Below, one piece after another: positions 3,411 through 63,672 of a stretch of 64,000 nt of DNA (position 1 is the first letter of the stretch; each line of letters begins with the position of its first letter). The DNA comes from Escherichia phage YX22: the sequence record OR776998, one strand, 5' to 3'. The translations under genes were made by a program, and so were the position numbers. A model generated the notes under the pieces. It had not been told where the DNA came from. It ran no database searches and saw only the letters and a list, made by a program, of their open reading frames with translations.

Positions 3411-3938
3411 TCAGATACCGATAAATTCATCAAAAGATCCAACAACCTTCTTCACCGAGATCTTGTCATTCTCAATCAGGAAGTTGCTGTCGTTTTTGGC
3501 TGCTGTAGCCCAGTCATCGGCAAGTTCGTTGCCTTCGTGTCCCGCATGACCCTTAACCCATTTTAGTTCAACATCACAAATTGAACAAACGAGATCATAG
3601 ATTCTGAACAGATCTTTGATGAGTTCAACGTTCTTTTCTGGGAAACCCTGATACTCCCACTTCGTTCGCCATTCGGTGACACTCTTGATGGCATATTGGC
3701 TGTCAGACCAAATTGTTGCCTTTGGTATTCTGCGCTCACCCTTTCCTGAGAATGCCCACAGTAGCTTCAATGCGTTGGTCACACCCAACAACTCGGCGAT
3801 ATTGTTAGTGGACGGGGGAGGTAGATGACCGAAGAACACCTTCCATTGCATACCCGTTATTGGCCTGATGACAAATGCCCAGCCTGCGGCCTGGTTGGTC
3901 TTCGGGTTAGAACCCCCGTCAGAATAAATTTCTATCAT
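3411..3938 (-). CDS. Ribonuclease HI (RNase H type 1 fold)
   Basis: Internal ATG at 3938 gives MIEIYSDGGS...; motifs SDGGS, NNIAELLGV, SDSQYA and WVKGHAGHEGNELADDWA closely match E. coli RNase HI (TDGS, TDSQYV, WVKGHAGHPENERCDELA). The upstream part of the 207-aa track ORF is probably not translated. Confidence 0.85.
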   Translation of the reverse strand: MIEIYSDGGSNPKTNQAAGWAFVIRPITGMQWKVFFGHLPPPSTNNIAELLGVTNALKLLWAFSGKGERRIPKATIWSDSQYAIKSVTEWRTKWEYQGFPEKNVELIKDLFRIYDLVCSICDVELKWVKGHAGHEGNELADDWATAAKNDSNFLIENDKISVKKVVGSFDEFIGI

Positions 3939-3940
3939 GA

Positions 3941-3952
3941 TATAAATATCCC
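3941..3952 (+). promoter_or_regulatory. Late-promoter-like element TATAAATATCCC on plus strand
   Basis: Exact T4 late core TATAAATA followed by CCC, about 32 nt upstream of the plus-strand ATG at 3984 (RBS AGAGGAA). Confidence 0.5.
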
Positions 3953-3983
3953 AAACTGGTTTTATAGAAAGAGGAATGAAACT

Positions 3984-4751
3984 ATGGCACCCCGCGCATA
4001 TCGTTTCAGTCTCACCGCCCCGCAGATTGAGCAATTGCTCCTCTCTATCTATGATGCTATCAAGTCAGAAGATATCATCTATGATTATGCTGCAGGTGGG
4101 ACTGCTGGACAAGTCGCAGCAGCTTCTGCTGTCAAGAACATGTGGTTGAAGCTCAACGAGATGGTGACAGGCCAAGGTCTCAAAGATGCCATCAACGATG
4201 CAGAAGACAGCAACGTGTTCACCGACTATTATAAGTCTTTACTGGATCGCGAAGGCTGGAAATTTATTGGATCTCCAGCAGATGAACTTCAGCGAGGCGA
4301 CATCGATACCTCGAACTTCAAAGGTGGTGAGGTCATTCTACTTCAGAAGAACGCTTCAGGCAACCCAGAATTCCAATACTGGAAGCGAACCCCTGTTGCT
4401 GGGGGTGATCCTACCTTTGCATGGGCTTCGGTCTATGAAGGGAACTCTAATGATTCCAGCATAGAGATTCCCGTGGTTGGCACCAGCGTACTCAAGGACA
4501 TCCCCAAGGCACTCTTCCATATGATCGAGTTCAGAGTGCATGTCTACGATGAGACACTGGGTCATTGGCAAGACACCGACGGGAAGGTGGGGTATCGTGG
4601 CGAGGATCTGATCTACAGTGTATACAACCATATTCAGACCAAACCTCTCGCCACCATTGACTTCAGCCAAGATACGGACAATATGACGGTTTCTGTGACG
4701 TCGTTGGAACCGAATGTCAAGTGCCATCTGTCCTTCGTTGCGGGTTACTAA
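3984..4751 (+). CDS. Hypothetical protein, probably late-expressed (possible virion protein)
   Basis: Internal ATG at 3984 (MAPRAYRFSLTAPQIEQ...) preceded by AGAGGAA and the late-promoter-like element. Protein-like composition, while the N-terminal extension of the track ORF is antisense to the RNase HI gene. Lone plus-strand gene in a minus-strand block. Confidence 0.55.
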   Translation: MAPRAYRFSLTAPQIEQLLLSIYDAIKSEDIIYDYAAGGTAGQVAAASAVKNMWLKLNEMVTGQGLKDAINDAEDSNVFTDYYKSLLDREGWKFIGSPADELQRGDIDTSNFKGGEVILLQKNASGNPEFQYWKRTPVAGGDPTFAWASVYEGNSNDSSIEIPVVGTSVLKDIPKALFHMIEFRVHVYDETLGHWQDTDGKVGYRGEDLIYSVYNHIQTKPLATIDFSQDTDNMTVSVTSLEPNVKCHLSFVAGY

Positions 4752-6967: not shown

Positions 6968-7216
6968 TTAGCCTTTCGCCACGTCTTCAGTCGTCATCGT
7001 GCCATAACATCCACAGCGTTCACAAATCACTCTGACGCAAGGCTTAAAAGTCTGAATATTAGTCACAGGAACGTTCACCGCCTTTGAAGAAACTTGCATT
7101 TCGCGGACTTCAACCCGTTGTTCGGCCAGGCGCTCATCGTCCAAGAAGGTGATCGTCTTGTGAGGACAACGCATTGACGATTCACCAACCCAGATTATTG
7201 CCATGTTGGGACTCAT
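6968..7216 (-). CDS. Hypothetical small protein with Cys cluster (possible zinc ribbon)
   Basis: 82 aa ORF, ATG start, CxxC-like C-terminal cysteines (CVRVICERCGC); stop overlaps the upstream gene by 1 nt. Confidence 0.4.
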   Translation of the reverse strand: MSPNMAIIWVGESSMRCPHKTITFLDDERLAEQRVEVREMQVSSKAVNVPVTNIQTFKPCVRVICERCGCYGTMTTEDVAKG

Positions 7217-7491
7217 TATTTGACCTCCGATTTGGAGATTAACAATTCCATCTCCGGGCGACCAATGACAGTCTCAACTTTGTCTTCTTCAACCATCATT
7301 TCATTCAGAAGATCGTACCCCAGGACTTGTACACCAAAAGACTTTTTATTCAGTTCTGCCTCAATATCGAGAACTCGCTGAACCGTCAGGCCACCGGAAG
7401 AGAACGGGACCGGATAGAAAGCAGAACACACTTGCGTGCTCCCATTTACGCTGTAACGAACCAGCAAGACATCACACCATACACCAGCCAT
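7216..7491 (-). CDS. Hypothetical protein
   Basis: 91 aa ORF, ATG start, tightly packed in the minus-strand operon. Confidence 0.4.
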   Translation of the reverse strand: MAGVWCDVLLVRYSVNGSTQVCSAFYPVPFSSGGLTVQRVLDIEAELNKKSFGVQVLGYDLLNEMMVEEDKVETVIGRPEMELLISKSEVK

Positions 7492-7492
7492 G

Positions 7493-8155
7493 TCACACCT
7501 CCACCGCGTGAGACTTCAGAAGTTCATCAATCTCTTTCTGTCCCATGTATGAGAACGGGGTGCGCTGGTAGAACGCCCAGAGTACTAACTGGACAACAGC
7601 ACGGGAACGGGTTTCGGCCGTCATCACCAGGCCACTGAAATGAGGAGACTCAGCTGTCCATTGTATCTCTTCGCCCAGGTCTTGATTACAGGTCACCGAG
7701 ATGCGGAACTTGTTGCACAGATTGTCGACCTCTTTGTACGCATCGGTAGACACACGAAGTTGTTCCGCATGTGCCCACGGAGTTGTGACGATTCTTTCAC
7801 CCATCACTTTATCAGAGATAAACCAATCAATACATTCGGTAAACTCACTAAAATGGTCGATACGATAAATGCAGTCTCCCCCTTCCATAGAACGCATGGC
7901 ATGATAGCGAGCGTCGATTTCGTTGTTGTGCATCGCGTTGAAGTCGATGAACACGCGACGCGCCAGCACAACATCTTCTGGTTGAAGTGCCAGGAAATCG
8001 TTCAGGCGGCTATAATGGAGGATATTGGAACCGTCGTGGCCACGTGTGCAATATGCGTAATAGCTACCGATACGGGCGTGGGCAATATAAGACAACGGGG
8101 CGAAGAATAATCCGTCAGGATCAGGACCGACGATAATAGAATAAAGTTTTTCCAT
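7493..8155 (-). CDS. Hypothetical protein
   Basis: Internal ATG at 8155 (MEKLYSIIVGPDPDG...) preceded by GAGTGACTATATC; 220 aa; no recognisable motif. Confidence 0.5.
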   Translation of the reverse strand: MEKLYSIIVGPDPDGLFFAPLSYIAHARIGSYYAYCTRGHDGSNILHYSRLNDFLALQPEDVVLARRVFIDFNAMHNNEIDARYHAMRSMEGGDCIYRIDHFSEFTECIDWFISDKVMGERIVTTPWAHAEQLRVSTDAYKEVDNLCNKFRISVTCNQDLGEEIQWTAESPHFSGLVMTAETRSRAVVQLVLWAFYQRTPFSYMGQKEIDELLKSHAVEV

Positions 8156-8211
8156 GATATAGTCACTCAAATGAAAGGGCAGCTTTATGATAAGCCGCCC
8201 GAGGTTATTGA

Positions 8212-9078
8212 TTATTGGAAATCGCCAACATACATGTTCAGCTTGTCGTCCCAATTCAGAACGACACGGATCGTTCCAGTATCTTCTGGGAAGGTCAGTT
8301 TGTCACACATGGCGCGATTAACATAAGTCCCGCTCTGGTTGACGTTGTAGTCCTTGCCTTGCATGATACCAAAACGCTTGAAGTCGCGAGTGACCATCAT
8401 GTTCAGAGTTGTCCAAGGGATTGTATCGCGCAGGGCTTTGCACAGGACGATCTTGCCATCCGACCTGAACGACACAAACAGCTCGTTGGCGACACGACGG
8501 CGAGTAGGCGGTTCAAGTTCACGCAGGGAAATGAATTGTGAATTCTTTACCTTTTCTGCCAGCGCCTGTACTTCTGCTGGATCCGGCTTGAACGGCTCCA
8601 CTGAAGAGTCAGACTTCATCACAACGTCACCCTTGCGCTTCTCAACCAATTGCTCCACAGCCTTTTGACTCACGGGAGGGAGGTATTTGGACTTAGGAAC
8701 AACCGCTGGCTTGATGACAGGGCTTGCATCTGGTTTCGCCTTTGGAGTACTCCGAGCCGCACGCAGCTTTTCCTGGGCTTCCAGAATGCGCTCTTGACGA
8801 GAAAGCGGAGCCTTTGGGGTGATCTTCGTACTGAAGTCAGAAACGCCGACCCAGTCACCCTGGTCGTTGCGCTTGGCGACCAGGGTCAGTTTGTGGATGA
8901 TACCCTGAAGTTTGCTCTCACGTAAGTTGTCGGCATACCAGAACTTCGCACCCATCTCGAACTTCTCGGCGAAGATCACGCGAGCGTCTTCGTGTACCAA
9001 CATAACTTTGGCTGCGTTGGGGGCAAAAGTCTTATTCTTTTCGATAATCGCCGCAGCGATTGTTTTGGTCAGGAGCAT
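8212..9078 (-). CDS. Hypothetical protein
   Basis: Track ORF starts at GTG (9081); adjacent ATG at 9078 (MLLTKTIAAA...) with AAGGA upstream; about 288 aa; K/P-rich central linker. Confidence 0.5.
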   Translation of the reverse strand: MLLTKTIAAAIIEKNKTFAPNAAKVMLVHEDARVIFAEKFEMGAKFWYADNLRESKLQGIIHKLTLVAKRNDQGDWVGVSDFSTKITPKAPLSRQERILEAQEKLRAARSTPKAKPDASPVIKPAVVPKSKYLPPVSQKAVEQLVEKRKGDVVMKSDSSVEPFKPDPAEVQALAEKVKNSQFISLRELEPPTRRRVANELFVSFRSDGKIVLCKALRDTIPWTTLNMMVTRDFKRFGIMQGKDYNVNQSGTYVNRAMCDKLTFPEDTGTIRVVLNWDDKLNMYVGDFQ

Positions 9079-9117
9079 CACAGTGTATTCCTTCAGTTCA
9101 CAATGTAGGGCTAAATT

Positions 9118-9444
9118 TTAACCCGAAACTTTATTTTGAAATCCGACAAAGTCCTGGGCAATTCCCCGGCAATACATCAGGTCTTTCTTCGTTTGTGGAC
9201 TGTTGTCAGCCGCAGTCAGCATCATGGGAAGATCCAGCGCATTCTCTATCTGATCAACACTGAACAGATCAAGGCGCTTCAGCTCTCCCTCGAAGTCAGA
9301 CAGGAGGATAGATGTGTCTTTGTCATCTGGGTGGAACTGCTGATACGTCTCCATCCATGCCACACATGTGTTCAGTTTGGACGGTGGCGCAGCGTTTACA
9401 CACCCGGCTATCAGTACCAACAAGAGCAGGATTTTACATTTCAT
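9118..9444 (-). CDS. Putative lipoprotein
   Basis: ATG at 9444 gives MKCKILLLLVLIAGCVNA: signal peptide with lipobox IAGC; 108 aa. Confidence 0.5.
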   Translation of the reverse strand: MKCKILLLLVLIAGCVNAAPPSKLNTCVAWMETYQQFHPDDKDTSILLSDFEGELKRLDLFSVDQIENALDLPMMLTAADNSPQTKKDLMYCRGIAQDFVGFQNKVSG

Positions 9445-10130
9445 CACTCGTTCTCCTTCATCATATTGTCGCAGTCAACACGAGTCTGCTGGAGTTCGCG
9501 CGACATGCGGGGATCATCAAGGTTCACGCTCAGATTCGTGGCCAGGTCTTTCAGACCGTTCTGAACCCTGTCTTCAAAGTAATAATCGTTCTCAACCAGC
9601 CAGGCTCTGAGACCGAGAGCGCGAGTACGCCATTCCTTCTTCAGGACGCGATCAGAGGTCTGCGTAGCGCTGTATTCGAATACTTTGATGCACTGGTTGC
9701 CATCGTTGATAAGGTTCAGGTGGCGGCGACCAACCTGCACACCCTTCTGTAATGCCGGAGAAGGGAGCGAACGGCACTGTCTTACGGTCATTCGGCCTTG
9801 GGTGCCCATTCGGCCAGTCATGATCAAATCGCCAGCCTCCATGCCGCCTCGATTAAATTCATCGTCATTGAGGTAGCCCTTGAGGTTATAGGCTCCCTGT
9901 TTGTAACGGTTGAACTCAATTCCGGCATTGACGACAGCAGTGGAGACGTTGCCTGTGTTCCAGAGTTCAGCGAAGTTCTCTATGGAACCAGACTTGTCGA
10001 TGGCAACCGCCTGAGAGAACCCAGCACAATAGGAAAGGTCGGACCACAGTTTATCACCTGTGGAGTTCAGCTTGGCAGCGGCGGGTAATGCCAGACCAGC
10101 CAGCACAACCCCGAGGATTAAACGTTTCAT
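9444..10130 (-). CDS. Putative secreted/periplasmic protein
   Basis: Internal ATG at 10130 gives MKRLILGVVLAGLALPAAA (cleavable signal peptide); 228 aa; 1-nt stop/start overlap with the downstream lipoprotein gene. Confidence 0.5.
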   Translation of the reverse strand: MKRLILGVVLAGLALPAAAKLNSTGDKLWSDLSYCAGFSQAVAIDKSGSIENFAELWNTGNVSTAVVNAGIEFNRYKQGAYNLKGYLNDDEFNRGGMEAGDLIMTGRMGTQGRMTVRQCRSLPSPALQKGVQVGRRHLNLINDGNQCIKVFEYSATQTSDRVLKKEWRTRALGLRAWLVENDYYFEDRVQNGLKDLATNLSVNLDDPRMSRELQQTRVDCDNMMKENE

Positions 10131-10209
10131 GGCGATTCTCCTTATTTCATTGGATGAAATGATAGGCGGCTCACCATAATGAGTAAAGGGATTCAATAAA
10201 CTATCGTAT

Positions 10210-10659
10210 TCAGAAACGGGTGTCGCTGACCGTTCTGTATCGCACACCCTGAAACTGTTTAGCGAGTTTAACAAATTCCATCGCTGGCAAATCAACTTTG
10301 TAGACCTTCATGCGCTGTTTGCCGTCCATGTTCAACGCAGCGACAAATCGGTGAGAACCGTCAACAACGTAATTGTCAGAAGACACCCAAACTCGACCCA
10401 TAGGTTTCTTATTTCTGATCTGCTTCATGATCTTCCAGACCTTCATTTTATTGATTTCGTTCTGGGTAAGACGAAGCATTTTGATGGGCACTTGCACAGC
10501 ATCTATGGACACGCCGTTGTCTTCAAGATATTTGTGAAAATCTTCTTGTTTGTCGGCATCGATTTGTGGCATAGAAGAACGAGAAAGCCCGAGGTTCCCA
10601 ACAGGAATCCTCAGGCCGTTAATGATGTTCAACCAGTCAATAAAAGATGTAAGGAACAT
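10210..10659 (-). CDS. ParB-like nuclease (ParB/Srx N-terminal domain) protein
   Basis: 149 aa; VQVPIKMLRLTQNEIN...YVVDGSHRFVAA resembles the ParB N-terminal domain signature (DGxHR); GAGG 7 nt upstream of ATG. Confidence 0.45.
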   Translation of the reverse strand: MFLTSFIDWLNIINGLRIPVGNLGLSRSSMPQIDADKQEDFHKYLEDNGVSIDAVQVPIKMLRLTQNEINKMKVWKIMKQIRNKKPMGRVWVSSDNYVVDGSHRFVAALNMDGKQRMKVYKVDLPAMEFVKLAKQFQGVRYRTVSDTRF

Positions 10660-10691
10660 GACATACCTCGGGATATAGGGTTATCCCTTAG

Positions 10692-10883
10692 TTAGCGCAT
10701 CCATCGATCCTTTCTCTCTTTCTCCTTGCGTTCGCGACGTTTCTGGTCGGATCGGAATAACCAATAGAAGAAGTTCCCACCCAAGATGAAAACCACCGCG
10801 ATTATTACTAGGACACCCTTCACAATTTCCCAAACCAATTCTTTATCCAAATTATACCTCGTCTTCTTCAGGTCCACCGTCAA
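10692..10883 (-). CDS. Possible small membrane protein (TTG start)
   Basis: 63 aa ORF with hydrophobic helix VLVIIAVVFILGGNFFYWLF and basic tail; first codon is TTG, no SD, overlaps the upstream gene by 32 nt. Confidence 0.25.
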   Translation of the reverse strand: MTVDLKKTRYNLDKELVWEIVKGVLVIIAVVFILGGNFFYWLFRSDQKRRERKEKERKDRWMR

Positions 10884-11139
10884 TCAGGATACGAGCGGCG
10901 TCGAAAGTTTCCCCGCCCGTGTTCAACAGCTTGGTTAGATCATCAAGAGTACCGACAGGACCAAGATCAGCCTGGCGGAGAACGAACTCGAGAAGCCCGT
11001 AGAGCGCTGATTGGAATCGGCTGTTATCGATATCGTTCTTTATTACCATCAGGCGCAAGATGTTCTCTGACTGAGTATGGTCAACACACGCCTTGTCTCT
11101 GATCATCTCCTTGATAGAACTTCTCTCTGATGGTGTCAT
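10852..11139 (-). CDS. Hypothetical protein
   Basis: 95 aa, ATG start forming an ATGA overlap with the stop of the upstream gene. Confidence 0.4.
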   Translation of the reverse strand: MTPSERSSIKEMIRDKACVDHTQSENILRLMVIKNDIDNSRFQSALYGLLEFVLRQADLGPVGTLDDLTKLLNTGGETFDAARILIDGGPEEDEV

Positions 11140-11510
11140 AACGTACCCCCGACAGAGATCAAGAACTCTTCTTGCATGGTCTTGACCGGGTGGTGGTTGC
11201 GGGTTTCGAACATGAAGCCCCAGCCACCGTCGGCGACGTTGCCAAAGGTCTTGACGCCAAAGGACTTCGTCCCGTTAGAGCAGGAATAGATGTCCAGGAC
11301 GTATGGGCTGCCCTGATTGTCGATCCCACGATTCACGTCGTCTGATACGCAGCGCTCAATCATCTTCCCGTTCTTATACAGAACGAGGTCTTGGCCATAC
11401 GCCTTGAAAGCATAAACACCGTTGGTAGACACTCCGGTGATGACAGGAGGGGCGGAAACAGCAGCAAAGGAAGCGCCCAGCAGGGCAACAGCGAGGATTA
11501 ACTTTTTCAT
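11136..11510 (-). CDS. Putative secreted protein
   Basis: Internal ATG at 11510 gives MKKLILAVALLGASFAAVSA (signal peptide) immediately after GAGACTATATC; 124 aa. Confidence 0.5.
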   Translation of the reverse strand: MKKLILAVALLGASFAAVSAPPVITGVSTNGVYAFKAYGQDLVLYKNGKMIERCVSDDVNRGIDNQGSPYVLDIYSCSNGTKSFGVKTFGNVADGGWGFMFETRNHHPVKTMQEEFLISVGGTL

Positions 11511-11569
11511 GATATAGTCTCTTGGTTTCAAATAGACGGGGTAATCATACCCCGCCCAAAGTTATAGAA

Positions 11570-11809
11570 TTAACTGATGTGCTTCAGAAGAGCGAAGAGG
11601 ATCACAGCCTTGGCCTTTACCTTTCCTACGATGCCTGTCTCGACATCAACTTCTTCAGCAACCCAATCTTTTCCCTTCTTGCTGATGATAACGTCACGGC
11701 GCTGTGCGTAGACTTCTTTGGTCGCATACACACGACGGAACCCTTTAGCGCGGAGCAATCCCCAATTGCGATCAATCTCTACTGAAGTTTCGACCATTTT
11801 GTTCTTCAT
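11570..11809 (-). CDS. Hypothetical protein
   Basis: 79 aa ORF, ATG preceded by AGATTATATC. Confidence 0.4.
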   Translation of the reverse strand: MKNKMVETSVEIDRNWGLLRAKGFRRVYATKEVYAQRRDVIISKKGKDWVAEEVDVETGIVGKVKAKAVILFALLKHIS

Positions 11810-11890
11810 GATATAATCTTACCTTTCAACCCGGTGAACCCATCGTTCGCCAGTTATTGAATAATAGGACATTCCTTAGAGGAAGTAAAC

Positions 11891-11927
11891 CCCCTAAAAG
11901 TAAAAATCCCCAACGTTTTGTTGGGGA
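11891..11927 (-). terminator. Rho-independent terminator downstream of the ACP-like gene
   Basis: On the minus strand: stem TCCCCAAC/GTTGGGGA with 5-nt loop followed by TTTTTACTTTT. Confidence 0.6.
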
Positions 11928-11933
11928 CTTCTG

Positions 11934-12257
11934 TTATTTGCGCAGGGCAACCACGAGTTCAGCGAGTTCACCCATGGTCGGGTCATCACCTTTACTACCC
12001 AGCCAACCGTCGTCGATTTCGACCTGAAACTCTTCTTCTAGTTCCATTACGATTTCGATGGCATCCAGTTCGTCACCGCCGAGGTCTTTCTTGGTACGGA
12101 GGCCAGCCAGCTTGTCCAGGGCGTCCTCGTTCTGAGATGCCACGTCGTCCAGCAATTTGCGCTTGTCATCGTCACGCCACAGATCCAAGTTCAGATTGTC
12201 AGTGGCGTACTGAGCCAGATGACGCATGACTTCAACATATGTTGGTTTGCTGCTCAT
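11934..12257 (-). CDS. Acyl carrier protein-like protein with Ser-to-Glu substitution at the phosphopantetheine attachment site
   Basis: 107 aa; C-terminal 55 aa align with E. coli AcpP helix II: phage DLGGDELDAIEIVMELEEEFQVEIDD versus AcpP [26 protein letters not shown]. Codon checked by hand: gac gaa ctg gat = D E L D. SD GGGAGAAG 6 nt upstream of ATG. Confidence 0.65.
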   Translation of the reverse strand: MSSKPTYVEVMRHLAQYATDNLNLDLWRDDDKRKLLDDVASQNEDALDKLAGLRTKKDLGGDELDAIEIVMELEEEFQVEIDDGWLGSKGDDPTMGELAELVVALRK

Positions 12258-12299
12258 GCTACTTCTCCCAAAGAAAGGCGGGTTGCCCCGCCCGTTGGA

Positions 12300-14501
12300 T
12301 TATATTTTGATTTCTTTCTCTGTCAGTTCGGCAGTGACCTTGTACTTCACCCCATCCACTTCAACTTCCATGGTGGACTCTTCCAGGTCGAGGTCGGTGA
12401 ACCAGCCATGGCCAGCAACGATACCATACACCACTTTAGACAGTGTCTTGTTCAGGGCGCGGACTTCGGTGATGGCCGCCTTGGCAGCAGCGTCGATCCA
12501 GTTTTCGATCAGATGTTTCTGTAAGGATTCAGGCACGGCAGTGATCATAGGAGACTTCACGAATGCTTCGTACTCCTTCAGCGCATTGGCGATGAACAAG
12601 TCACCAGCATTGAGTTTCTTGTTCTCGGCAATCTTCTTCTGTACCGCTGCGATAGACGGTAGAGATGAAGCGCCAGCGATCTTCACGTTCAGCTCACGGC
12701 TCATGTAGAAGTCGGTAGACTCTTTGGTCTCAGTCTTCGGTGAGAAGCCGTAATCGCGGATGCCGTAGGAGGACAGGAACTCGGCCGCCTCAGCGCCGTA
12801 CTGTACTGCCAAGCCTTTGGCGTTACCCTTACCAACCAGGGCGTCTCGATAGAACTTCAGCACCTTCTGCTTGCCTTTCAGGGCTTCCAGACGGACATTA
12901 TCCGCAAAGAACTGAGCAGCACTGATGTTCTTGACCATGGCGCGGTTGACCAGCGGTACGCTTTCCAGGTTCAGGACAAACACTTCCGGACCACCAAACA
13001 CGTGGACACCCATTTCGATCAGCTTATGCACGACTTCGATATCAGCCTTGAACGGCAGAGTCTTCACGTTAATGATACCGTCTTTGACGATGGTGTAGTT
13101 GCGCCACTGGAAAGTATCCAGTTCTTCAGGCAGACCGAACTTCTTCTGTGCGAATTCAGGCACAGCCACAGTACCGTGTTGAATTGTACGCACACTGATG
13201 TTCGGGCGCTCGGAGTTATAGACCAAATCGCTGATTGGCACAACACCCAGGTCGTTGGTAGGTTCGAACGTCGGGTTCCACTCTTCGTGTTCTGCCAGCT
13301 TGAGAGCCAGTGCTTTACGCTCTTCTTTGGACTGAGCGTTCGCGATCTGTTCTGCCAGCTTGTCTTCGGTGTCGTCGGTTTTCTGCACAGTACCGCGCCC
13401 GATGCTCTTATAGGAGAACATCGGATGCTTGGTAGCAACAGGCACACCAGCTTCAGCCAGGTACGTCAGCACATCAACGACGGTGGTCGCATCTTCAGCC
13501 GGAACCAGGTCATAGTCAATACCGTCAACGCCGCGCAGCTGGTCGTCAACAATCGCCTGAACCAGATCGTTCTTGATGTTGGAGTAGTCCTGCTTGGTGA
13601 AGCAGTTGCTGTACTGTTTGATGAAGCGAACGTCGCCCGTTTTCTTCAGTGCAGCCCACACCAGGTCCGCGTCCATGATGTGTACGCCGTAGAACGCCAG
13701 CACGTATGCCGCCTGGATGTCCGCCAGCGCATCAAGCTGGTCGATCATGTTAGGGTTTACAACCCACAGCTTGGTGACGCTCTCAGGGATGCTCACATAG
13801 CCGACCGGGTGAGAGTCATCGTCCTGCACCGCCAGTACTGTTGCCACACCGTTTTCGACGTAGATGGCATGGGTGTAGATGACTGGGACATCAACTTTCA
13901 CCTTCGGCACTGATGACTTCAGCACGTTTTCCAGTTCGGTCTGGTATTCGGTCTGACCTTCAGCAAACACGTGGGTCGCACCGGAGCGCTCAGACATCAG
14001 AGCTAGCAGTTCGCGGTTACAGTACCAGCCATATTCGATAAATGTAATGTTATCGAAAGCAAATGGCAGGGTCTCAGCAACCAGTAGAATTTCGTTGGTA
14101 CGCCAGCAGTTGTCATACCCGTCAGTCATGAACGCCAGGTTGTTGACATAGCCAGGTTTCTTCAGGTCACGCGCAGTATCCATCGCCAGTTTCAATGGCT
14201 CAACGAAACCAGTACAGCCGGATGGTTGCAGGAAACGGTCGATCAGTTTGTTCAGCTCGCTCAGGTCAGACGCAGCACTAACCTGGCGGCCAGCGAACAC
14301 AGTACCAAAGTCGCCTTTGGAGGAGAAATACAGAACGCTCACAGTGTCTTCCGGCTTCACCAGGGATGGCAGGTTCTCCTTCAGGTGCTTGCGGACTTCA
14401 GGGAGCGCACGGTACATAGAGCCGGAAATGTCTACAACGATTACATGGTTGGACGGAGCAGCAGTCGCAACCGCATTCTTAAATTCTAATGATTCAATCA
14501 T
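12300..14501 (-). CDS. von Willebrand factor A (vWA/MIDAS) domain protein, 733 aa
   Basis: ATG at 14501 (MIESLEFKNAV...); N-terminal vWA signature VIVVDISGSM (DxSxS MIDAS), G/T-containing loop, FMTDGYDN; roughly 500 aa C-terminal region of unknown fold. Confidence 0.7.
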   Translation of the reverse strand: MIESLEFKNAVATAAPSNHVIVVDISGSMYRALPEVRKHLKENLPSLVKPEDTVSVLYFSSKGDFGTVFAGRQVSAASDLSELNKLIDRFLQPSGCTGFVEPLKLAMDTARDLKKPGYVNNLAFMTDGYDNCWRTNEILLVAETLPFAFDNITFIEYGWYCNRELLALMSERSGATHVFAEGQTEYQTELENVLKSSVPKVKVDVPVIYTHAIYVENGVATVLAVQDDDSHPVGYVSIPESVTKLWVVNPNMIDQLDALADIQAAYVLAFYGVHIMDADLVWAALKKTGDVRFIKQYSNCFTKQDYSNIKNDLVQAIVDDQLRGVDGIDYDLVPAEDATTVVDVLTYLAEAGVPVATKHPMFSYKSIGRGTVQKTDDTEDKLAEQIANAQSKEERKALALKLAEHEEWNPTFEPTNDLGVVPISDLVYNSERPNISVRTIQHGTVAVPEFAQKKFGLPEELDTFQWRNYTIVKDGIINVKTLPFKADIEVVHKLIEMGVHVFGGPEVFVLNLESVPLVNRAMVKNISAAQFFADNVRLEALKGKQKVLKFYRDALVGKGNAKGLAVQYGAEAAEFLSSYGIRDYGFSPKTETKESTDFYMSRELNVKIAGASSLPSIAAVQKKIAENKKLNAGDLFIANALKEYEAFVKSPMITAVPESLQKHLIENWIDAAAKAAITEVRALNKTLSKVVYGIVAGHGWFTDLDLEESTMEVEVDGVKYKVTAELTEKEIKI

Positions 14502-16475: not shown

Positions 16476-17326
16476 TTTACACGTCCTGTATTTTCAGTTT
16501 TGAAAGGAAGCCCGTCGGCGGTGATGTTCTCCCACCAGACAGTGTCGGCATACACAGCATCATAGATCCCGTCGAAAACAGAGAGACCTTTGCTGAAGAT
16601 GCCATGGGTAACGAAGAGCGTCATGTGCTTAGGCTTGTGCTTCTGAAGCTCTTTGCCTAACTCAACGAACGTGCGCCCACCGTCGCAGATATCATCGACC
16701 ACCACCAGATAGCGGTCTTTGATCAGTTCAGGGTTCGTAATACTCACCCCAATGATCTCACCAGTCTTGGTGTCACGGTTCTTGTGACCGTAGACAACAG
16801 GAACACCGTCCAACGACAGACTGAGGGCTTCGGTCTTCTTAGCCGCGCCGCCGTCAGGGGCTACCAACACAGCGTTGTTCCCACGGATGAACCAGCCCAG
16901 ATACTGACGCACGATGTAATCTTGCGGGACAACATGGACGTTGTTGATCAGAGAAGACACAACATGGCTGTGAGGATCTTTGATCGCCACGCGGTCAAAG
17001 TTCATGCTATTGATGAACTCAGCCGCCCACTTCACAGACAGAGGCTCACCGAAGTCACAATGGCGGTCCTGGCGAGCATACGGGAAGTAAGGGATATACG
17101 CATGGAATGTCGTCAGACGGTCCACGTTACTCAGACCACGAACGGCGTTTACCAGAAGCGCCAGCTCAATGAAGTCGGCTGATGATTTGATGTGAGCATC
17201 AATCACCACGTTCTGAACGTGGCCGATAGGGATACCAGACTTTTGGATCTTAATATGTTCCTCACCACCTGGGAAGGTGAAGTGTTTGTAGAACACATCT
17301 TGGTCGTTCAATTTCAAACGAAACAT
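16472..17326 (-). CDS. Ribose-phosphate pyrophosphokinase (Prs) family protein (candidate Adps of a NAD+ reconstitution pathway)
   Basis: 284 aa; PRPP-binding signature LVVVDDICDGGRTF and Prs-like N-terminal half; translationally coupled to the NAMPT-like gene. Confidence 0.8.
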   Translation of the reverse strand: MFRLKLNDQDVFYKHFTFPGGEEHIKIQKSGIPIGHVQNVVIDAHIKSSADFIELALLVNAVRGLSNVDRLTTFHAYIPYFPYARQDRHCDFGEPLSVKWAAEFINSMNFDRVAIKDPHSHVVSSLINNVHVVPQDYIVRQYLGWFIRGNNAVLVAPDGGAAKKTEALSLSLDGVPVVYGHKNRDTKTGEIIGVSITNPELIKDRYLVVVDDICDGGRTFVELGKELQKHKPKHMTLFVTHGIFSKGLSVFDGIYDAVYADTVWWENITADGLPFKTENTGRVK

Positions 17327-22262: not shown

Positions 22263-23135
22263 TTAATCGATACGGGTCAATTGGGTGATAGATGATTGCA
22301 CTGGGCTGGCCACATAGATACGGACGTTGGCTTTCCATTCACCCCAGATCAACGGCAGAGTTGGGAAGTTGTCTTCATTGAAAACAAACACGGGAATGTA
22401 GCTCTCGACTGTTTCGCCAGAGAACGCCTGGAAGCCCATCTTGGTGTATCCCACGATCTCGTCAATAAAATCGAACGGAGCGAAGGCAACACCAGCGTGT
22501 TCGTTAGAACCGAGCTGGCCTGGAATGGCCGTACCCGTCAGAATGATTTCAGTGATCTGGCGCTTAGGCTCGGCGGTCAACATATCAGAGAAGTCAGGCT
22601 CTTTGAAGGTTGCCATGTTCTTCAGGAACTTGCCAGCCGGGTATTCTTTGCCGTCGACGGTGATGGTGTCCACCACTTTGATGCACGCCTGAGGGAATTC
22701 CCCTTCGATGCGTAGACTTTCGCGTGGGAATCCTTTGTTGTAGTAGTAATCCAGTGCTGGCACAACTTCACCTTCATTGCGAATGAACTTGCTCATGTTA
22801 GAGGCATACACGCGCTGTAAGCATTCGTCGCCGTCGAAACCAGCAATATGAGCCAAACCGTCGTTGACTGTTGTGATGTCGCCCTGGGCATCCATGATCT
22901 GGCGCATAATGTCTTTGATGTCGACAACAACAGGTTCTTTCAGGACTCGCGGAGATGCAGTGAACTCAATTTTCACCTCGTGGTCGAAATACGCCGCTTC
23001 CAGCAGTTCACGGGTTTCTTCCAGCACCAGTTTCGCCTGATTGCGGATCTTACCAAAGTCGGGCGATGTGACGTCGCCCTTTGCATTACCGAAAGCCAGA
23101 TTCAGATTCACGTTCTTGGAAAATGTAGTTGTCAT
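22263..23135 (-). CDS. Hypothetical protein (290 aa)
   Basis: ORF with ATG start; acidic helical N-terminus (LVLEETRELLEAAYFDHE). Confidence 0.5.
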   Translation of the reverse strand: MTTTFSKNVNLNLAFGNAKGDVTSPDFGKIRNQAKLVLEETRELLEAAYFDHEVKIEFTASPRVLKEPVVVDIKDIMRQIMDAQGDITTVNDGLAHIAGFDGDECLQRVYASNMSKFIRNEGEVVPALDYYYNKGFPRESLRIEGEFPQACIKVVDTITVDGKEYPAGKFLKNMATFKEPDFSDMLTAEPKRQITEIILTGTAIPGQLGSNEHAGVAFAPFDFIDEIVGYTKMGFQAFSGETVESYIPVFVFNEDNFPTLPLIWGEWKANVRIYVASPVQSSITQLTRID

Positions 23136-23151
23136 GATTTAGCGACTCCAG

Positions 23152-23616
23152 TTATTCGCTTTTTGCCTTCGTAGGCCGGATGATGTATTTTGGAACCAGT
23201 TTCCATTCAGGAACCTGATCGTGTTTAACCACTTTAATGCGAGACATATCGGCTGCTTCAGTGACCTGCTCAGGATGAATGACCTTCACCATGTTCCACT
23301 GCTCCAGCAGCTTGATGATTCGGTTCATCCTCAGGACATCTTCGCGGTTAAATCCGTTGTAATGCCCGTCCAGCATAAATAGATGCTTGAAGTGGACGAT
23401 ATAATACTTGCCACACTTATGAAGAATATGGCAAGTCTGATACAGAGTATTCGGCTCTTGGCGCGTGTTTACCCCAATTCGACTCAGTGTTTCCTTGATC
23501 CCCAGGAATATACCTGGCCGATCTTGGTTCAATTGAACTTCAACCATACAATCAACGATGCTGGCCTCATCGTTGACTGCTGAAATATTCAATATGTCTA
23601 GCGTATTACGCGCCAT
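23152..23616 (-). CDS. regA: RegA translational repressor
   Basis: 154 aa; LYQTCHILHKCGKYYIVHFKHLFMLDG and C-terminal EWKLVPKYI match T4 RegA (LYQSCHILQKKGLYYIVHFKEMLRMDG ... EWKLVPKYTIGN); lies downstream of 62 as in T4. Confidence 0.9.
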   Translation of the reverse strand: MARNTLDILNISAVNDEASIVDCMVEVQLNQDRPGIFLGIKETLSRIGVNTRQEPNTLYQTCHILHKCGKYYIVHFKHLFMLDGHYNGFNREDVLRMNRIIKLLEQWNMVKVIHPEQVTEAADMSRIKVVKHDQVPEWKLVPKYIIRPTKAKSE

Positions 23617-25062: not shown

Positions 25063-25718
25063 TATGTATTTCCATGATATAGTTTACAGAACAGAACCCA
25101 AGCGTCGTCATCATACGGGTTCCAGCCCTCTTTGAATTTGTTTAACATACTCGTTGCGGTGTTCTCTTTGATAGAGAACAAACGGGCAATTCTATGGCAC
25201 CCATCACCAGTAGAAACCCAGTGATCATACACTACCCCAGCCTTTAACCACATCGGTCTGGTGTTGTGTAGCAGCGCAGCCCCGGTGTCCCAGGGTTTTA
25301 TTCCTGCGGCGGGGTGGCTTTTACCAGTTCTTCCGTGCATGGGATGAAGATTCCCAGACTTACCCTTCAACCAACTCGAGACACCAACTCGGTGATGTTT
25401 GGGTCCCGCTGACCTACCGTTGGCGATACCACAACCCAGTGGCTGAAATGATTTGTTTAAACATTTTGGGTGATCAATGTTCTCACTAATCAACTGCTGC
25501 TCTCTCCAATATGCTTCTTCTGGGGAGTCAAACAGTTCTACGAATTCTACATCAAAGAAATCAGAACCTTTCTTAGATATGATTTCCTTGACTGTTTGTG
25601 AAGAAGTGAAATATGAAGTGAACAATTGTAAAGGATGTGCACCCAATTTCGTTCTAGAACCAAAATAGAAAGAACCATCCTTCCCTAACAAATGATATAC
25701 AAACGGTTGGTTCCTCAT
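25062..25718 (-). CDS. GIY-YIG family homing endonuclease (Seg-like), free-standing between genes 45 and 44
   Basis: ATG at 25718 preceded by GAGG (5-nt spacer); N-terminal PFVYHLLGKDGSFYFGSRT (GIY...YIG module); C-terminal basic G/K/H-rich repeats resembling NUMOD-like DNA-binding motifs; T4 has rpbA at this position. Confidence 0.65.
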   Translation of the reverse strand: MRNQPFVYHLLGKDGSFYFGSRTKLGAHPLQLFTSYFTSSQTVKEIISKKGSDFFDVEFVELFDSPEEAYWREQQLISENIDHPKCLNKSFQPLGCGIANGRSAGPKHHRVGVSSWLKGKSGNLHPMHGRTGKSHPAAGIKPWDTGAALLHNTRPMWLKAGVVYDHWVSTGDGCHRIARLFSIKENTATSMLNKFKEGWNPYDDDAWVLFCKLYHGNT

Positions 25719-25751
25719 TTCAGCCTCGTGTAGAAGAATCATTTCAAATAG

Positions 25752-25770
25752 GCGGGGAACGCCCCCGCCC
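25752..25770 (-). terminator. Hairpin between gene 45 and the homing endonuclease gene
   Basis: Stem GGCGGGG/CCCCGCC with 5-nt loop, followed on the minus strand by TATTTGAAATG; a TGcTATAAT-like -10 sequence sits just upstream on the minus strand (about 25775-25786). Confidence 0.5.
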
Positions 25771-25799
25771 ACACATTATAGCATCAGGCTGGAGATTGA

Positions 25800-31934: not shown

Positions 31935-32150
31935 GGGATCATGGTAGTTTGTAAACGAAGTTGGACCAGAACTTACGAACAAACTTCTTGACATAAACCA
32001 TTCGGTTGGCGTATTCCCCATCCTTCAGGTCATTGTAGGTCTCAATCCCTACCGCGCCCAAGAAGTACGCCGTGAAGATGTAACAGAACAGATTGATGAC
32101 GACAAACATGATGTATCTCCGCTGTGTATACTCAAATTATTTATGATATG

Positions 32151-33370: not shown

Positions 33371-33814
33371 TCAGTTGTTAATGCGGAACAGTTGTGGATA
33401 ACCACCTGGATGCCCTTCTCCGGTCACGAAGACCTCGTACCGGGCACCTTTAACCAAACCGGGCAAATTGCCTGAGTCGAGTAGATATCGGATTTTATCC
33501 ATAGTGTCCATCCAGGACTTAGCAGGTTCAGCTTCAGCCTCTCCACGATTGAGGACGAGTTCACCTTCAGAATAATACTTCCCGCTGTCCTTCATGTAGT
33601 ACAGCTTGATATGGATATACTGAGGGGATGGAACTTCTGTCCAACCCTCATCGTTCAAATCCTGGCGATCATTGTCGAAACTCTGAAAATCAACATCACC
33701 ACATGCCAGGCGATAATCTTTGAATTTACGGAAACCTTCCACCTTGTCCCCAACGGAGCTACGGAAGAACTGTTTCTTGGCGGGACTAATGAAAATGAAA
33801 TTCTTGTTACACAT
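33371..33814 (-). CDS. Hypothetical protein
   Basis: Internal ATG at 33814 (MCNKNFIFISPAKK...), 147 aa. Confidence 0.4.
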   Translation of the reverse strand: MCNKNFIFISPAKKQFFRSSVGDKVEGFRKFKDYRLACGDVDFQSFDNDRQDLNDEGWTEVPSPQYIHIKLYYMKDSGKYYSEGELVLNRGEAEAEPAKSWMDTMDKIRYLLDSGNLPGLVKGARYEVFVTGEGHPGGYPQLFRINN

Positions 33815-33831
33815 GATATAGATCCTTCCTT

Positions 33832-50158: not shown

Positions 50159-50390
50159 CTTGGCCTCCTGACGGGAGTTCAATCCCGAGGTGTTCCGCCA
50201 TGAGTTGTACCATCGCTGTTAGTTGATCTATTTGCGCTGCCTGCGCTGCAATAGTTCTGTCCTTTTCTTCCTGATTTCGACGAGCGTTCAGTGCTGCCAA
50301 ACCGGCAGCATTGTCTGTGCAGATGATAGCCCCAGGGCAAGAGCTACTTCTCATCATCGATGCATGCCCTTGTACTTTTACACCACGCAT
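50142..50390 (-). CDS. Hypothetical small protein
   Basis: 82 aa, ATG preceded by GAGGATATTATC; overlaps the downstream gene by 16 nt. Confidence 0.4.
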   Translation of the reverse strand: MRGVKVQGHASMMRSSSCPGAIICTDNAAGLAALNARRNQEEKDRTIAAQAAQIDQLTAMVQLMAEHLGIELPSGGQDGNPN

Positions 50391-50439
50391 GATAATATCC
50401 TCTGTTAATGGCGGGGTTGCCCCGCCTTGTTAATACTAC

Positions 50440-63500: not shown

Positions 63501-63593
63501 TTCGTCTTCTTTGACACCGAAATTTCGAGCGATAGATTGTTTGTTAACTTCTATGGAAGTGGAGCCGCGTGGTTGATTGAATTGAGAAATCAT
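60567..63593 (-). CDS. Tailspike protein with BNR/Asp-box (sialidase-like beta-propeller) domain, 1008 aa
   Basis: N-terminal anchor module shared with the 55580-57493 protein; Asp-box-like motifs SGDDGQTW and SHDLGMTW; late-promoter element upstream. Confidence 0.7.
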   Translation of the reverse strand: MISQFNQPRGSTSIEVNKQSIARNFGVKEDEVVYFTAGIDLSGFKVIYDESTQRAYSLPSGIVSGTTAVSLNEQAILAHSAGSVDLGELAVSREEYVTLPGSFDTGATLNVKNELLTHVAGKYRWEGEFPKTVPAGSTPGSTGGTGTGAWVSVGDASLRSQLSDPDGATKYPDLQIARWRDTFDPRGWNAKGDGVTDDTSALNGVLNAAPVGQKINGNGKTYKVTSLPDISRFVNTRFVYERIPGQPLYYASEEFVQGELFKITDTPYYNAWPQDKAFVYDDVIYCPFMASDRHGVSRLHVSWVRSGDDGQTWTTPEWLTDLHPDYPTVNYHCMSMGVMRNRLFAMIETRTLASNALVTCELWDRPMSRNYHPTGGITKAANQPVAVITIPEHGLFAGDFVNFSNSGVTGVSGNMTVTSVIDRNTFTVTTPNQQAFDQNNSTSRWHMGTSFHESPWRKTSLGLIPMVTEVHSFTAINNDSFMMGYHQGDVAPREVGMLYFPDAFNNPGLYQKRRIPADYEPDAAEPCVKYFDGVLYVLTRGTRSDRLGSSLHRSHDLGMTWESLRFPNNVHHSTLPFAKVGNELIIFATERADNEWEANVPDQRYFTSYPRTFYTRVNLDTWNLDNTQWVNITDQIYQGGIVNSGVGVGSVVVKDSYIYYMFGGEDHLNPWTYGDNSAKDPFKSDGHPSDLYCYKMKIGPDNRVSRDFRYGAVPDRAVPVFFDTNGVRTVPAPMEFTGDLGLGHVTLRASTSNNIRSEMLLEGEYGFIGKSVPTNNPAGQRTIFCGGEGTSSSTGAQITLYGANNTASRRIVYNGAEHLFQTADVKPYNDNAIALGGPSNRFTTAYLGSNPIVTSNGEKKTEPVVFDDAFLDAWGDVHYIMYQWLDAVQLKGNEARIHFGVIAQQIRDVFIAHGLMDENSTDCRYAVLCYDKYPRMTDMVFSHNEIVEHTDEEGNVTTTEEPVFTEVVIHEEGEEWGVRPDGIFFAEAAYQRRKLERIEARLSALEQK
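63125..63593 (-). repeat. Diverged direct repeat: tailspike N-terminal anchor module (copy B)
   Basis: Paralogous to 57040-57493. Confidence 0.7.
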
Positions 63594-63596
63594 GAT

Positions 63597-63672
63597 AATA
63601 CCCCATAAAGGATGACCAATATGGGGTATTTAGGCTGAACTAATAAATTTATGAACAAAGGTATAACAAGAA
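63597..63672. repeat. Repeated promoter cassette (copy 2)
   Basis: Near-identical to 60218-60293; here the small plus ORF is reduced to a 33-codon remnant running into a hairpin. Confidence 0.8.
63621..63633 (-). promoter_or_regulatory. Late-promoter-like element CAGCCTAAATACCCCAT
   Basis: About 30 nt upstream of the tailspike ATG at 63593. Confidence 0.5.

Follow-up and report, generated by a model that had tools for sequence, protein, structure and literature searches.

The 64,000 nt stretch of DNA analysed here (the window) derives from an Ackermannviridae phage (ViI-like, Aglimvirinae) with 97.8% identity to Escherichia phage RPN242, and its gene orientation is that of the minus strand. 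At 8153..8169 (-) lies the translation initiation region (TIR) of a gene encoding a hypothetical protein of 220 aa, in which an SD-like GAGTGA is followed by the spacer CTATATC and the ATG at 8155-8153 (start string GAGTGACTATATC-ATG). The TIR is located directly after a terminator-like hairpin (8200-8177) plus a T-run, and the alignment of the gene product with PHROG 5426 begins at residue 1. A scan of IMG/VR for deep orthologues yielded nine loci, and the TIR was shown to be kept as GAGAGAC(C)TATATC/T-ATG in seven of nine IMG/VR relatives.

Similar strings were observed at the starts of further genes, all on the minus strand. The TIR of a 124-aa hypothetical gene (11508..11523; AAGAGA, CTATATC, ATG; string GAGACTATATC-ATG at 11510) is identical in LIMEstone1. 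The TIR of a 79-aa hypothetical gene (11807..11825) consists of AAGGTAAGA, TTATATC and ATG (string AGATTATATC-ATG at 11809); this gene represents the first ORF after an early-promoter-like site (11889-11861), and the PHROG 804 alignment of its longer form begins at residue 1. The TIR of the RNase H gene (PF00075; 3936..3952) is composed of GGGA, TATTTATATC and ATG (string GGGATATTTATATC-ATG at 3938), and its reverse complement includes TATAAATA, which resembles a late promoter of the divergent gene that starts from 3984(+), with the LIMEstone1 annotation placing a late promoter at the equivalent position. A 147-aa hypothetical gene (33812..33829; GGAAGGA, TCTATATC, ATG; string GGATCTATATC-ATG at 33814) was missing from the sites listed in an earlier note on this DNA; its orthologues carry CACATC in LIMEstone1 and TATATT in ViI. 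Furthermore, the TIR of a 56-aa gene (32107..32122) combines GCGGAGA with the variant TACATC before its ATG.

A looser class of starts shares the ATC triplet at positions -3 to -1. For example, the TIR of a late gene encoding an 82-aa virion structural protein (50388..50402 (-)) consists of GAGGA, TATTATC and ATG (string GAGGATATTATC-ATG at 50390), while that of the tail-spike/tail-fibre gene (63591..63604 (-)) consists of GGGG, TATTATC and ATG (string GGGGTATTATC-ATG at 63593). In the latter, GGGG forms the 3' and CCCC the 5' arm of a hairpin, the CCCC being part of a CTAAATACCCC late-promoter-like site (63627-63633). Other looser-class ATC starts were found at 37280 (major capsid), 38223 (scaffold), 39250, 41165 (portal) and 48125 (tail sheath stabiliser), and the pyrophosphohydrolase gene starts with CTAAATC-ATG (23133..23138 (-)), again with ATC at -3 to -1. 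One copy, CTATATCATG (25073..25081 (-)), is not at a gene start: AAACTATATC-ATG (25075) lies 13 nt before the ATG of gene 44 (25062) and opens a mini-ORF of six codons within the 3'-terminal part of an inserted HNH gene, and the same sequence is present upstream of gene 44 in LIMEstone1.

The start-adjacent strings described in the earlier note were all recovered on the minus strand, each directly before a start codon. Its gp55 copy was less robust, as GAGGACTATCATA-ATG (3399) is a weak resemblance that becomes GAGGGATTTCATA in RPN242 and is not conserved, and the copies that it had placed further upstream of genes (10659 and gene 45) were likewise found to be weak resemblances, two sites at -19 and -23. 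Within the -70 to -1 windows, CTATAT occurred outside position -7 five times, compared with ~2 expected as estimated from its genome-wide frequency.

The recurrence of the motif at starts was quantified in the window and in RPN242 (complete genome), LIMEstone1, ViI, T4 and E. coli. TATATCATG has six matches in the window, none of them on the plus strand, compared with 0.42 expected (six or more in 0 of 100 shuffles), and five of the six adjoin genuine starts. For RPN242 (complete genome, both strands), all eight copies adjoin a start codon, as do 14 of the 17 copies of TAYATCATG, and TATWATCATG is represented in the window by two matches versus 0.19 expected. Enrichment relative to start codons, which had been put forward as a check on the motif, was indeed observed, with ATC at -3 to -1 of 14 of 69 starts in the window (20%), compared with 48 of 2256 non-start ATGs (2.1%; binomial p = 2e-10). 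The hexamer ATCATG as such was not enriched overall (62 versus 53.6 expected), indicative of a positional rather than a compositional signal. ATC was shown to be the most frequent triplet at -3 to -1 in RPN242 (32 of 194 starts, 16.5%), LIMEstone1 (25 of 143, 17.5%) and ViI (19 of 134, 14.2%), and to be rare at starts of T4 (5 of 139, 3.6%) and E. coli (4 of 96, 4.2%). The RPN242 value represents a twofold excess over the 8.3% predicted from single-position frequencies.

The starts concerned are genuine, as their N-termini match RPN242 proteins and PHROG profiles from residue 1. A gene-caller artefact was ruled out, since an annotation-free predictor that is blind to positions -4 to -1 still ranked ATC first (22 of 151). 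The genes were confirmed to be unrelated, as had been proposed, because BLASTP among 33 ATC-class proteins returned no match, which also rules out paralogy of the downstream genes.

The layout of these sites was shown to consist of (T)TGA..RGGA, zero to three bases, TAYATC and ATG, with the SD core ending 7-8 nt before the AUG, which is also the most frequent spacing in the ATC class as a whole, and with G or A in 80-90% of cases at positions -11 to -8. Of the 54 starts without a gap to the upstream gene (overlapping or abutting), only one has ATC, compared with 32 of the 139 that have such a gap, and 12 of 14 TAYATC sites lie within gaps of >40 nt. The strict TAYATC form is confined to non-structural genes and is present at six of seven first ORFs after early-promoter-like TTTACT-N17-TATACT/TATTAT sites. 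The ATC context is found in all temporal classes, including the major capsid, scaffold, portal, neck and tail spike genes. Start regions exhibited mean MFE values of -4.9 to -5.8 kcal/mol (-4.9 for ATC starts and -3.5 for TAYATC sites), compared with -8.6 kcal/mol for random coding 50-mers. ATC starts and other start regions did not differ significantly in structure (p = 0.27), and a distinct structural class of ATC starts was rejected for that reason.

The motif is common to three genera. Orthologous sites interchange TATATC, TACATC and TATATT, and gains of ATC sites in single lineages were also observed. Between RPN242 and ViI, spacer identity at -1, -3 and -6 was 93%, 86% and 93% for the ATC class, compared with 64%, 62% and 70% for other spacers. 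Conserved copies were also observed 12-13 nt upstream of the true start of gene 44 (window and LIMEstone1) and of g042 (three genera).

We consider it fairly probable that the motif represents the core of a consensus TIR of the Ackermannviridae, read in cis as RNA by the host 30S subunit. This agrees with the suggestion in the earlier note of a translational enhancer or start context, as the motif separates a purine-rich SD from genuine AUGs in free leaders. The consensus would read 5'-(U)UGA..RGGA, 0-3 nt, U-A-Y-A-U-Y, AUG. Judging from its properties, the spacer, which is G-poor and alternates between pyrimidine and purine, would set the SD core at 7-8 nt from the AUG, provide A and U for positions -3 and -2, respectively, and keep the structure of the start region weak. 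Members of the Ackermannviridae would thus prefer AUY, mainly AUC, at -3 to -1 unless an overlapping upstream gene constrains the leader, and the full TAYAUC would mark non-structural genes that come first after early-promoter-like sites or directly follow terminators, positions that presumably need strong independent ribosome entry. We infer that the motif sequence increases initiation efficiency. Reporter data from E. coli rank A/U-rich spacers (AUAU, for example) among the most efficient, and C is unfavourable in the spacer (PMC7264876); U is favoured over C at -1 (PMC10018350). In T4, AUY-AUG is present at 18 of 139 starts, mostly as AUU (ATT 13, ATC 5), suggesting that the choice between C and U at -1 may follow genome composition.

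Several observations sit less easily with a consensus TIR. The 7-9-mer ACTATATC-ATG is more exact than an efficient spacer usually requires, and C at -1 is contrary to the E. coli optimum, host genes having ATC at 4 of 96 starts. In addition, two conserved copies precede the real start by 12-13 nt (gene 44 and g042), and ATC regions are structured like other starts (p = 0.27).

The exactness of the motif, which exceeds a generic spacer need, and its C at -1, which is not the host optimum, would be accommodated if UAYAUC-AUG were an operator on early mRNAs for the RegA homologue, or for another phage repressor or endoribonuclease, that competes with the 30S subunit and later shuts off early genes. 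The candidate trans-acting factor is encoded at 23152..23616 (-) as a complete protein of 154 aa (PF01818, E = 2e-34, profile positions 1-121 of 122; PHROG 242, E = 3e-53), which has 43% identity to T4 RegA and retains T18, R21 and W81. T4 RegA sites are located at or just 5' of the AUG and are A/U-rich and unstructured, with no sharp consensus (PMC3014915), and the first three of these properties are shared by the motif. The restriction of TAYATC to non-structural genes, including six of the seven first ORFs behind early-promoter-like sites, points in the same direction, as does the conservation of the copies before gene 44, a classical T4 RegA target, and g042, neither of which uses the AUG of the copy as its main start. 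However, the motif is absent from the orthologues of the T4 RegA targets 44, 45, 62, regA, dexA and rIIB in RPN242 and ViI; among target orthologues, only gene 44 of the window and of LIMEstone1 is preceded by a copy, at a distance of 13 nt. The TIR of the RegA homologue itself (AAAAGGGGAATGAGTC-ATG) is without the motif. Known RegA ligands comprise AAAAUUGUUAUGUAA and 5' poly(A) for T4 and UAA repeats for RB69 (PMC3014915), whereas CUAUAUCAUG contains neither a poly(A) tract nor UAA and includes two C residues. The homologue has also diverged, with an N-terminal extension of 23 residues and with G and H in place of K14 and F106 (K14G, F106H), two residues linked to RNA binding or cross-linking in T4. 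Finally, the broader ATC preference reaches late structural genes, outside T4 RegA control, and orthologous sites drift among TATATC, TACATC, TATATT and non-motif spacers.

Given that the motif is missing from target orthologues and that late structural genes have the ATC context too, the proposal in the earlier note of a RegA operator is not supported, and we regard an early-mRNA operator for RegA or a comparable factor as unlikely. The narrower version, in which UAYAUC-AUG would be a sequence-specific RNA operator on the first ORFs of early units, bound by the diverged RegA homologue or cut by a phage nuclease, we likewise hold to be rather improbable. If an operator were nonetheless at work, the Ackermannviridae would possess a sharply defined early shut-off signal, compared with the diffuse signal of T4 RegA, and the non-start copies before gene 44 and g042 would be operators; binding by RegA or another protein would give a repressor family with hitherto ill-defined natural sites a well-defined, testable RNA target. 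Our literature search on Ackermannviridae promoters, transcription start sites and ribosome-binding sites revealed no account of the start context, and no expression data for the family were found in the literature searched. The authors of the CBA120 study reported that early promoters of the Ackermannviridae were not identifiable to them (PMC3184105).

Common descent of the leaders is a further explanation, in which a cassette of terminator hairpin, early promoter, leader of ~45 nt and TIR would have spread by duplication or recombination to unrelated genes, like the promoter-stem-loop cassettes of T4-type phages, the heptamer being shared as a consequence. TAYATC leaders do resemble each other beyond the heptamer (g071 and g087 have GGAACTATATCATGACA and TTGAAnAGC in common), the promoters share TTTACTTCTTCAATA, and the proteins encoded downstream are unrelated. 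Conversely, the motif also follows plain terminators without a promoter-like site and is present at late genes, and single lineages have independently gained ATC at orthologous starts. Moreover, spacer positions are conserved above flanking leader positions across genera, indicative of continuing selection on the sequence itself. Such a cassette is doubtful as an explanation of the motif; it would account for spread and not for function, and is compatible with a consensus TIR.

A very improbable alternative is selection on the opposite strand, where CAT-G-N-TATA-N-T, the reverse complement of A-N-TATA-N-C-ATG, would act as an extended -10 element (TGnTATAnT) for the host sigma-70 polymerase and direct antisense transcripts away from gene starts. 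The consensus positions A-8, T-6, A-5, T-4, A-3, C-1 and A+1 each map to a specified position of TGnTATAAT, which would account for C at -1, and a perfect extended -10 is present at 11807-11817(+) (TGATATAAT), where a promoter scan made a call with the TG. However, six of 14 TAYATC sites are TACATC, in which the essential -11 A of the antisense element becomes G, and the sites at 8155 and 11510 have no -35 element and only a partial match (TATAGT). The motif is also always oriented with the gene and needs an SD before it. The free exchange of TATATC, TACATC and TATATT at orthologous sites, TATATT removing the TG, led to rejection of the antisense extended -10 as a class.

Three further candidates were dismissed. 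A gp55-type late promoter (TATAAATA/CTAAATA) does not apply, since CTATATC is located at -7 of non-structural genes and deviates from the late consensus; 16 of 20 CTAAATA copies lie 30-49 nt upstream of starts, a distance also seen for TATAAATA. Pairing of C(-1) with a phage initiator tRNA was rejected, as the only tRNA(CAU), encoded in RPN242 outside the window, is not an initiator: it has a paired G1:C72, A37 and an anticodon stem without three consecutive G:C pairs, and presumably resembles E. coli ileX. No tRNA was found in a tRNA search of the window. Extended SD/anti-SD pairing, with AUC opposite GAU of 16S rRNA, is in the wrong register, as contiguous pairing needs GGAGGUGAUC and AUC sits 4-6 nt downstream of the SD-pairing register, with only a few GTGATC sites matching.

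For annotation of Ackermannviridae genomes, the motif provides a reliable gene-start marker; in the annotation of RPN242, for example, gp110 probably lacks its first 12 nt. Together with TTTACT-N17-TATACT sites, the motif points to early genes of this family. As many Ackermannviridae phages are used in biocontrol and therapy, it also represents a ready-made, strong candidate TIR for engineering. As regards start-site selection, the conserved C at -1 is contrary to the reported U preference of E. coli.

Compared with SD-led TIRs of E. coli and coliphages, such as that of T7 gene 10 (AAGGAGAUAUACAU-AUG), the Ackermannviridae TIR shares a purine-rich SD at 7-8 nt from the AUG and a G-poor, A/U-rich, weakly structured spacer with A at -3, but is distinguished by the exact recurrence of its heptamer and by AUC at -3 to -1 in 14-20% of starts. 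The T4 context (UGAGGAAAUU-AUG type) similarly combines a UGAGGA-type SD with an A/U spacer that ends in AU-pyrimidine. However, T4 has A-runs and U at -1 (ATT 13, ATC 5), whereas the Ackermannviridae have alternating UAYAU and C at -1 (ATC 32, ATT 14 in RPN242), and the diffuse T4 context contrasts with an exact 9-mer, including the ATG, that occurs eight times per genome and only there. With the RegA operators of T4 and RB69, the motif shares its position at or abutting the AUG of early mRNAs and its A/U-rich, unstructured nature, and the gene for the RegA homologue adjoins clamp-loader genes as in T4. Conversely, it is sharply defined rather than degenerate, has no poly(A) or UAA, is missing from most RegA-target orthologues and extends, as ATC, to late genes. 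The promoter-early stem-loop (PeSL) cassettes of T4-type phages are likewise conserved modules of promoter, hairpin and leader before unrelated small early ORFs; unlike in these cassettes, the recurrent element described here is the TIR itself, which is also present without a promoter-like site.

Over positions 7000-13000, the window (G+C content ~49%) exhibited 97.8% identity to Escherichia phage vB_EcoM-RPN242 (Ackermannviridae, Aglimvirinae); its relatives also include Ag3, SKML-39 and ViI-like phages. Nearly all genes are carried by the minus strand, so that the start-abutting strings quoted in an earlier note on this DNA represent minus-strand reads; all were found in the window, each abutting a start codon. 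The 9-mer TATATCATG was present in six copies, all on the minus strand (expected 0.42), and TATWATCATG in two (expected 0.19). Five TATATCATG copies represent genuine starts (3938, 8155, 11510, 11809 and 33814), with products that align from residue 1 to RPN242 proteins and PHROG profiles, and the sixth (25075) corresponds to a six-codon mini-ORF in the 3′ end of an inserted HNH ORF upstream of gene 44. The proteins encoded downstream of the motif are unrelated to one another. In the complete RPN242 genome (195 annotated CDS, both strands), all eight copies of the 9-mer abut a start, so the motif is not similarly frequent inside genes, and TAYATCATG was located at starts in 14 of 17 cases. The ATCATG hexamer itself was not over-represented (62 vs 53.6 expected), indicating that the signal resides in its position. 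The TAT(A/T)ATC sites at 50390 and 63593, quoted as members of the same group, do abut starts but belong to a looser class defined by ATC at -3 to -1 (ATC class); even RPN242 does not preserve the gp55 string, and the supposed upstream copies (10659 and gene 45) are isolated, at -19 and -23, and barely exceed chance.

Alignment of all RPN242 starts revealed a Shine-Dalgarno (SD) sequence at -11 to -8, followed by A-3 (54%), T-2 (44%) and C-1 (35%). ATC was the most frequent -3 to -1 triplet, being observed at 32 of 194 starts (16.5%, twice the prediction from single-position frequencies) compared with 2.0% of 5458 non-start ATGs. Similarly, ATC preceded 14 of 69 window starts (20%) vs 2.1% of non-start ATGs (p = 2e-10). 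It remained the top triplet (22/151) when starts were predicted using ORF length and SD as sole inputs, thereby ruling out an annotation artefact. The ATC class was shown to prefer T at -6, A/T at -5, T/C at -4 and A at -8, yielding RGGA-(N)-TAYATC-ATG. Late genes with ATC differ in the preceding bases (major capsid, CCATC; scaffold, CAATC; portal, TAATC; tail spike, TTATC).

Where a start overlaps or abuts the upstream gene, ATC was found in one of 54 cases, compared with 32 of 139 where a gap intervenes, indicative of a dependence on a free leader; gaps of >40 nt precede 12 of the 14 TAYATC sites. The 14 RPN242 TAYATC genes encompass RNase H and small or hypothetical non-structural genes. 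Several are located directly downstream of a terminator hairpin and T-run (e.g. 8200-8177 in the window), and others ~45 nt downstream of a conserved sigma-70-like element, TTTACT(TC)-N17-TATACT/TATTAT, of which RPN242 carries eight copies (1.4 expected). The first ORF behind six of seven credible sites starts with TAYATC-ATG. These early-promoter-like elements, often preceded by a hairpin, are located at RPN242 record positions 140513, 76186, 61328, 55296, 48218, 37178 and 29212, and the scan placed one in the window at 11889-11861(-), upstream of the 11809 gene; for phage CBA120, early promoters could not be identified by its authors (PMC3184105). Leader similarity extends past the heptamer for g071 and g087, and promoters have TTTACTTCTTCAATA in common, suggesting a spread of regulatory cassettes to positions ahead of unrelated genes, which may account for part of the heptamer's exactness.

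The motif most likely represents the SD-to-AUG spacer of an Ackermannviridae consensus translation initiation region; of the two readings offered in the earlier note, translational enhancer or RegA operator, the sequence data fit the first. This spacer, poor in G, would keep a distance of 7-8 nt between the SD core and the AUG. The RNA around it folds weakly (-3.5 to -4.9 vs -8.6 kcal/mol for coding 50-mers), and A/U spacers such as AUAU rank among the best in E. coli reporters (PMC7264876). Promoter- and terminator-proximal genes, for which translational coupling is unavailable, would need strong independent ribosome entry, and the concentration of the motif on such genes fits this need. Two features fit a spacer role less well, namely the unusual exactness of the heptamer and the C at -1: U at -1 is the reported optimum, by pairing with A37 of initiator tRNA (PMC10018350), and C is unfavourable in spacers (PMC7264876). 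Genome composition may explain the use of C rather than U.

It is unlikely that the motif is instead an operator for RegA, as the earlier note had proposed, or for another factor. The window encodes a RegA homologue (23152-23616(-); PF01818, E = 2e-34; PHROG 242), adjoining the clamp-loader genes as in T4. It exhibits 43% identity to T4 RegA and retains T18, R21 and W81, while the RNA-contact residues K14 and F106 are replaced by G and H, respectively; at the N-terminus it is extended by 23 residues compared with T4 RegA, and the internal Met24 is not preceded by an SD. RegA acts in competition with ribosomes on ~30 mRNAs of the early or middle class, at A/U-rich, unstructured sites without clear consensus that overlap or precede the AUG, and SELEX yielded AAAAUUGUUAUGUAA for T4 RegA and UAA repeats for RB69 RegA (Uzan and Miller review, PMC3014915). 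The motif resembles such sites in position and absence of structure, its strict form is found on early-type genes, and a conserved CTAYATCATG, with an AUG that does not serve as the main start, precedes the real start by 12-13 nt both at gene 44 (in the window and in LIMEstone1) and at g042 (in three genera). However, its sequence is unlike known RegA ligands, the ATC context is equally common in late structural genes, and most RegA-target orthologues lack the motif (45, 62, regA, dexA and rIIB, and gene 44 in RPN242 and ViI), which together speak against the proposal. The motif represents a reasonable candidate target for testing with an Ackermannviridae RegA protein.

Between genes 45 and 44, the window carries an HNH-endonuclease-like ORF (25062-25772(-), 236 aa; 28% identity to RPN242 HNH gp011), the stop codon of which overlaps the gene 44 ATG (TAATG). 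This insertion is absent from RPN242. Its last codons contain a CTATATCATG copy (25073-25081(-)), and the same junction sequence occurs in LIMEstone1 (record position 85637), where no HNH gene is annotated between 45 and 44.

An antisense promoter was also considered, as A-N-TATA-N-C-ATG, read on the other strand, gives an extended -10 promoter (TGnTATAnT), with a perfect match at 11807-11817(+) called by the promoter scan. This reading was rejected: orthologous sites freely interchange TATATC with TACATC (-11A lost) and TATATT (TG lost), which argues against selection on the antisense strand. A late promoter was likewise rejected, since CTAAATA rather than the motif is the most enriched upstream 7-mer in RPN242, with 16 of 20 copies 30-49 nt from starts; the 10659 and gene 45 copies lie too near the ATG for this distribution. 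A special initiator tRNA was dismissed, as the phage tRNA(CAU) is not an initiator. In the RPN242 'tRNA-Met' (CAU; sequence L002, 21705-21781, outside the window), positions 1 and 72 are paired, and the anticodon stem and loop presumably resemble those of E. coli ileX; rather than a Met tRNA, it is probably a tRNA-Ile2 that reads AUA.

CTAAATA(C)CCC, which looks like the gp55-type late promoter of Ackermannviridae phages, occurs in ten window copies, all on the gene strand (23647-23653, 28732-28738, 31929-31935, 38251-38257, 44519-44525, 48762-48768, 48802-48808, 55313-55319, 60251-60257 and 63627-63633, all (-)). At three composite signals (31900-31936(-), 60214-60258(-) and 63593-63634(-)), an 8-bp hairpin takes its 5′ arm from the CCCC(C) of the late-promoter-like CTAAATACCCC, and its 3′ arm, (AT)GGGG(G)T, doubles as the SD of the gene that follows; a T-rich tail and the ATG come next. 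Judged from this arrangement, read-through transcripts could terminate or have a hidden SD, while in those begun at the late promoter the 5′ arm would be missing and the SD exposed. The 45-nt divergent region between RNase H (-) and a structural-protein gene (+) (3936-3984) has a dual use: on the opposite strand, the RNase H spacer TATTTATATC reads GATATAAATA, a stretch that holds the T4 late-promoter consensus TATAAATA for the plus-strand gene.

Two further regions diverge from RPN242. ORFs of 554 and 284 aa at 14811-17326(-) lack a full counterpart, the latter matching gp114 over its first 65 residues only, and this region is a strain-specific replacement or insertion. Tail-spike/tail-fibre genes at 55580-63593(-) share only N-terminal parts (~135-254 residues, 52-88% identity), representing the receptor-binding module exchange usual in Ackermannviridae.

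The motif is of use in start-codon annotation and in phage engineering. For gp110 (RPN242 sequence L001, 11668-11907; window 11570-11809(-)), the RPN242 annotation uses the second ATG; the upstream ATG, in a TTATATC context, yields a 79-aa product matching PHROG 804 from residue 1, and the true start probably lies 12 nt upstream of the deposited one.

Comparison with LIMEstone1 (Limestonevirus) and ViI (Kuttervirus), 150 kb each, showed ATC-ATG at 17.5% of 143 and 14.2% of 134 orthologue-mapped starts, respectively. Orthologous sites are partly conserved and partly turned over among RPN242, LIMEstone1 and ViI (g009, TACATC/TACATT/TATATC; g138, TATATC/CACATC/TATATT; g087, TATATC/TACATC), with single-lineage gains of ATC at g003, g055, g079, g097, g146 and g152. 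TATATC or TATATT is present in eight of nine IMG/VR relatives of the 8155 gene, seven of them with the fuller GAGAGAC(C) context, and the upstream hairpin displays compensatory substitutions across this set. Between RPN242 and ViI, ATC-class spacers are 93%, 86% and 93% conserved at -1, -3 and -6, compared with 64%, 62% and 70% for other spacers. Such a pattern marks continuing selection on the RNA-strand sequence, with interchangeable pyrimidines at -4 and -1.

The motif is a real, family-wide and sharply defined translation-initiation context, and an element of a well-known rather than a new kind; the genome papers of CBA120 and LIMEstone make no mention of it. In the outgroups (100 kb each), ATC-ATG accounted for 3.6% of 139 T4 starts and 4.2% of 96 E. 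coli K-12 starts (Fisher p = 0.00015 and 0.002, respectively; pooled 6e-6). T4 prefers ATT, AAT, AAA and ATA at -3 to -1. With C and U pooled, AUY occupies these positions at 24% of Ackermannviridae, 13% of T4 and 7% of E. coli starts, indicating that Ackermannviridae have a T4-like AU-pyrimidine habit, but with the use of C and a much sharper consensus.
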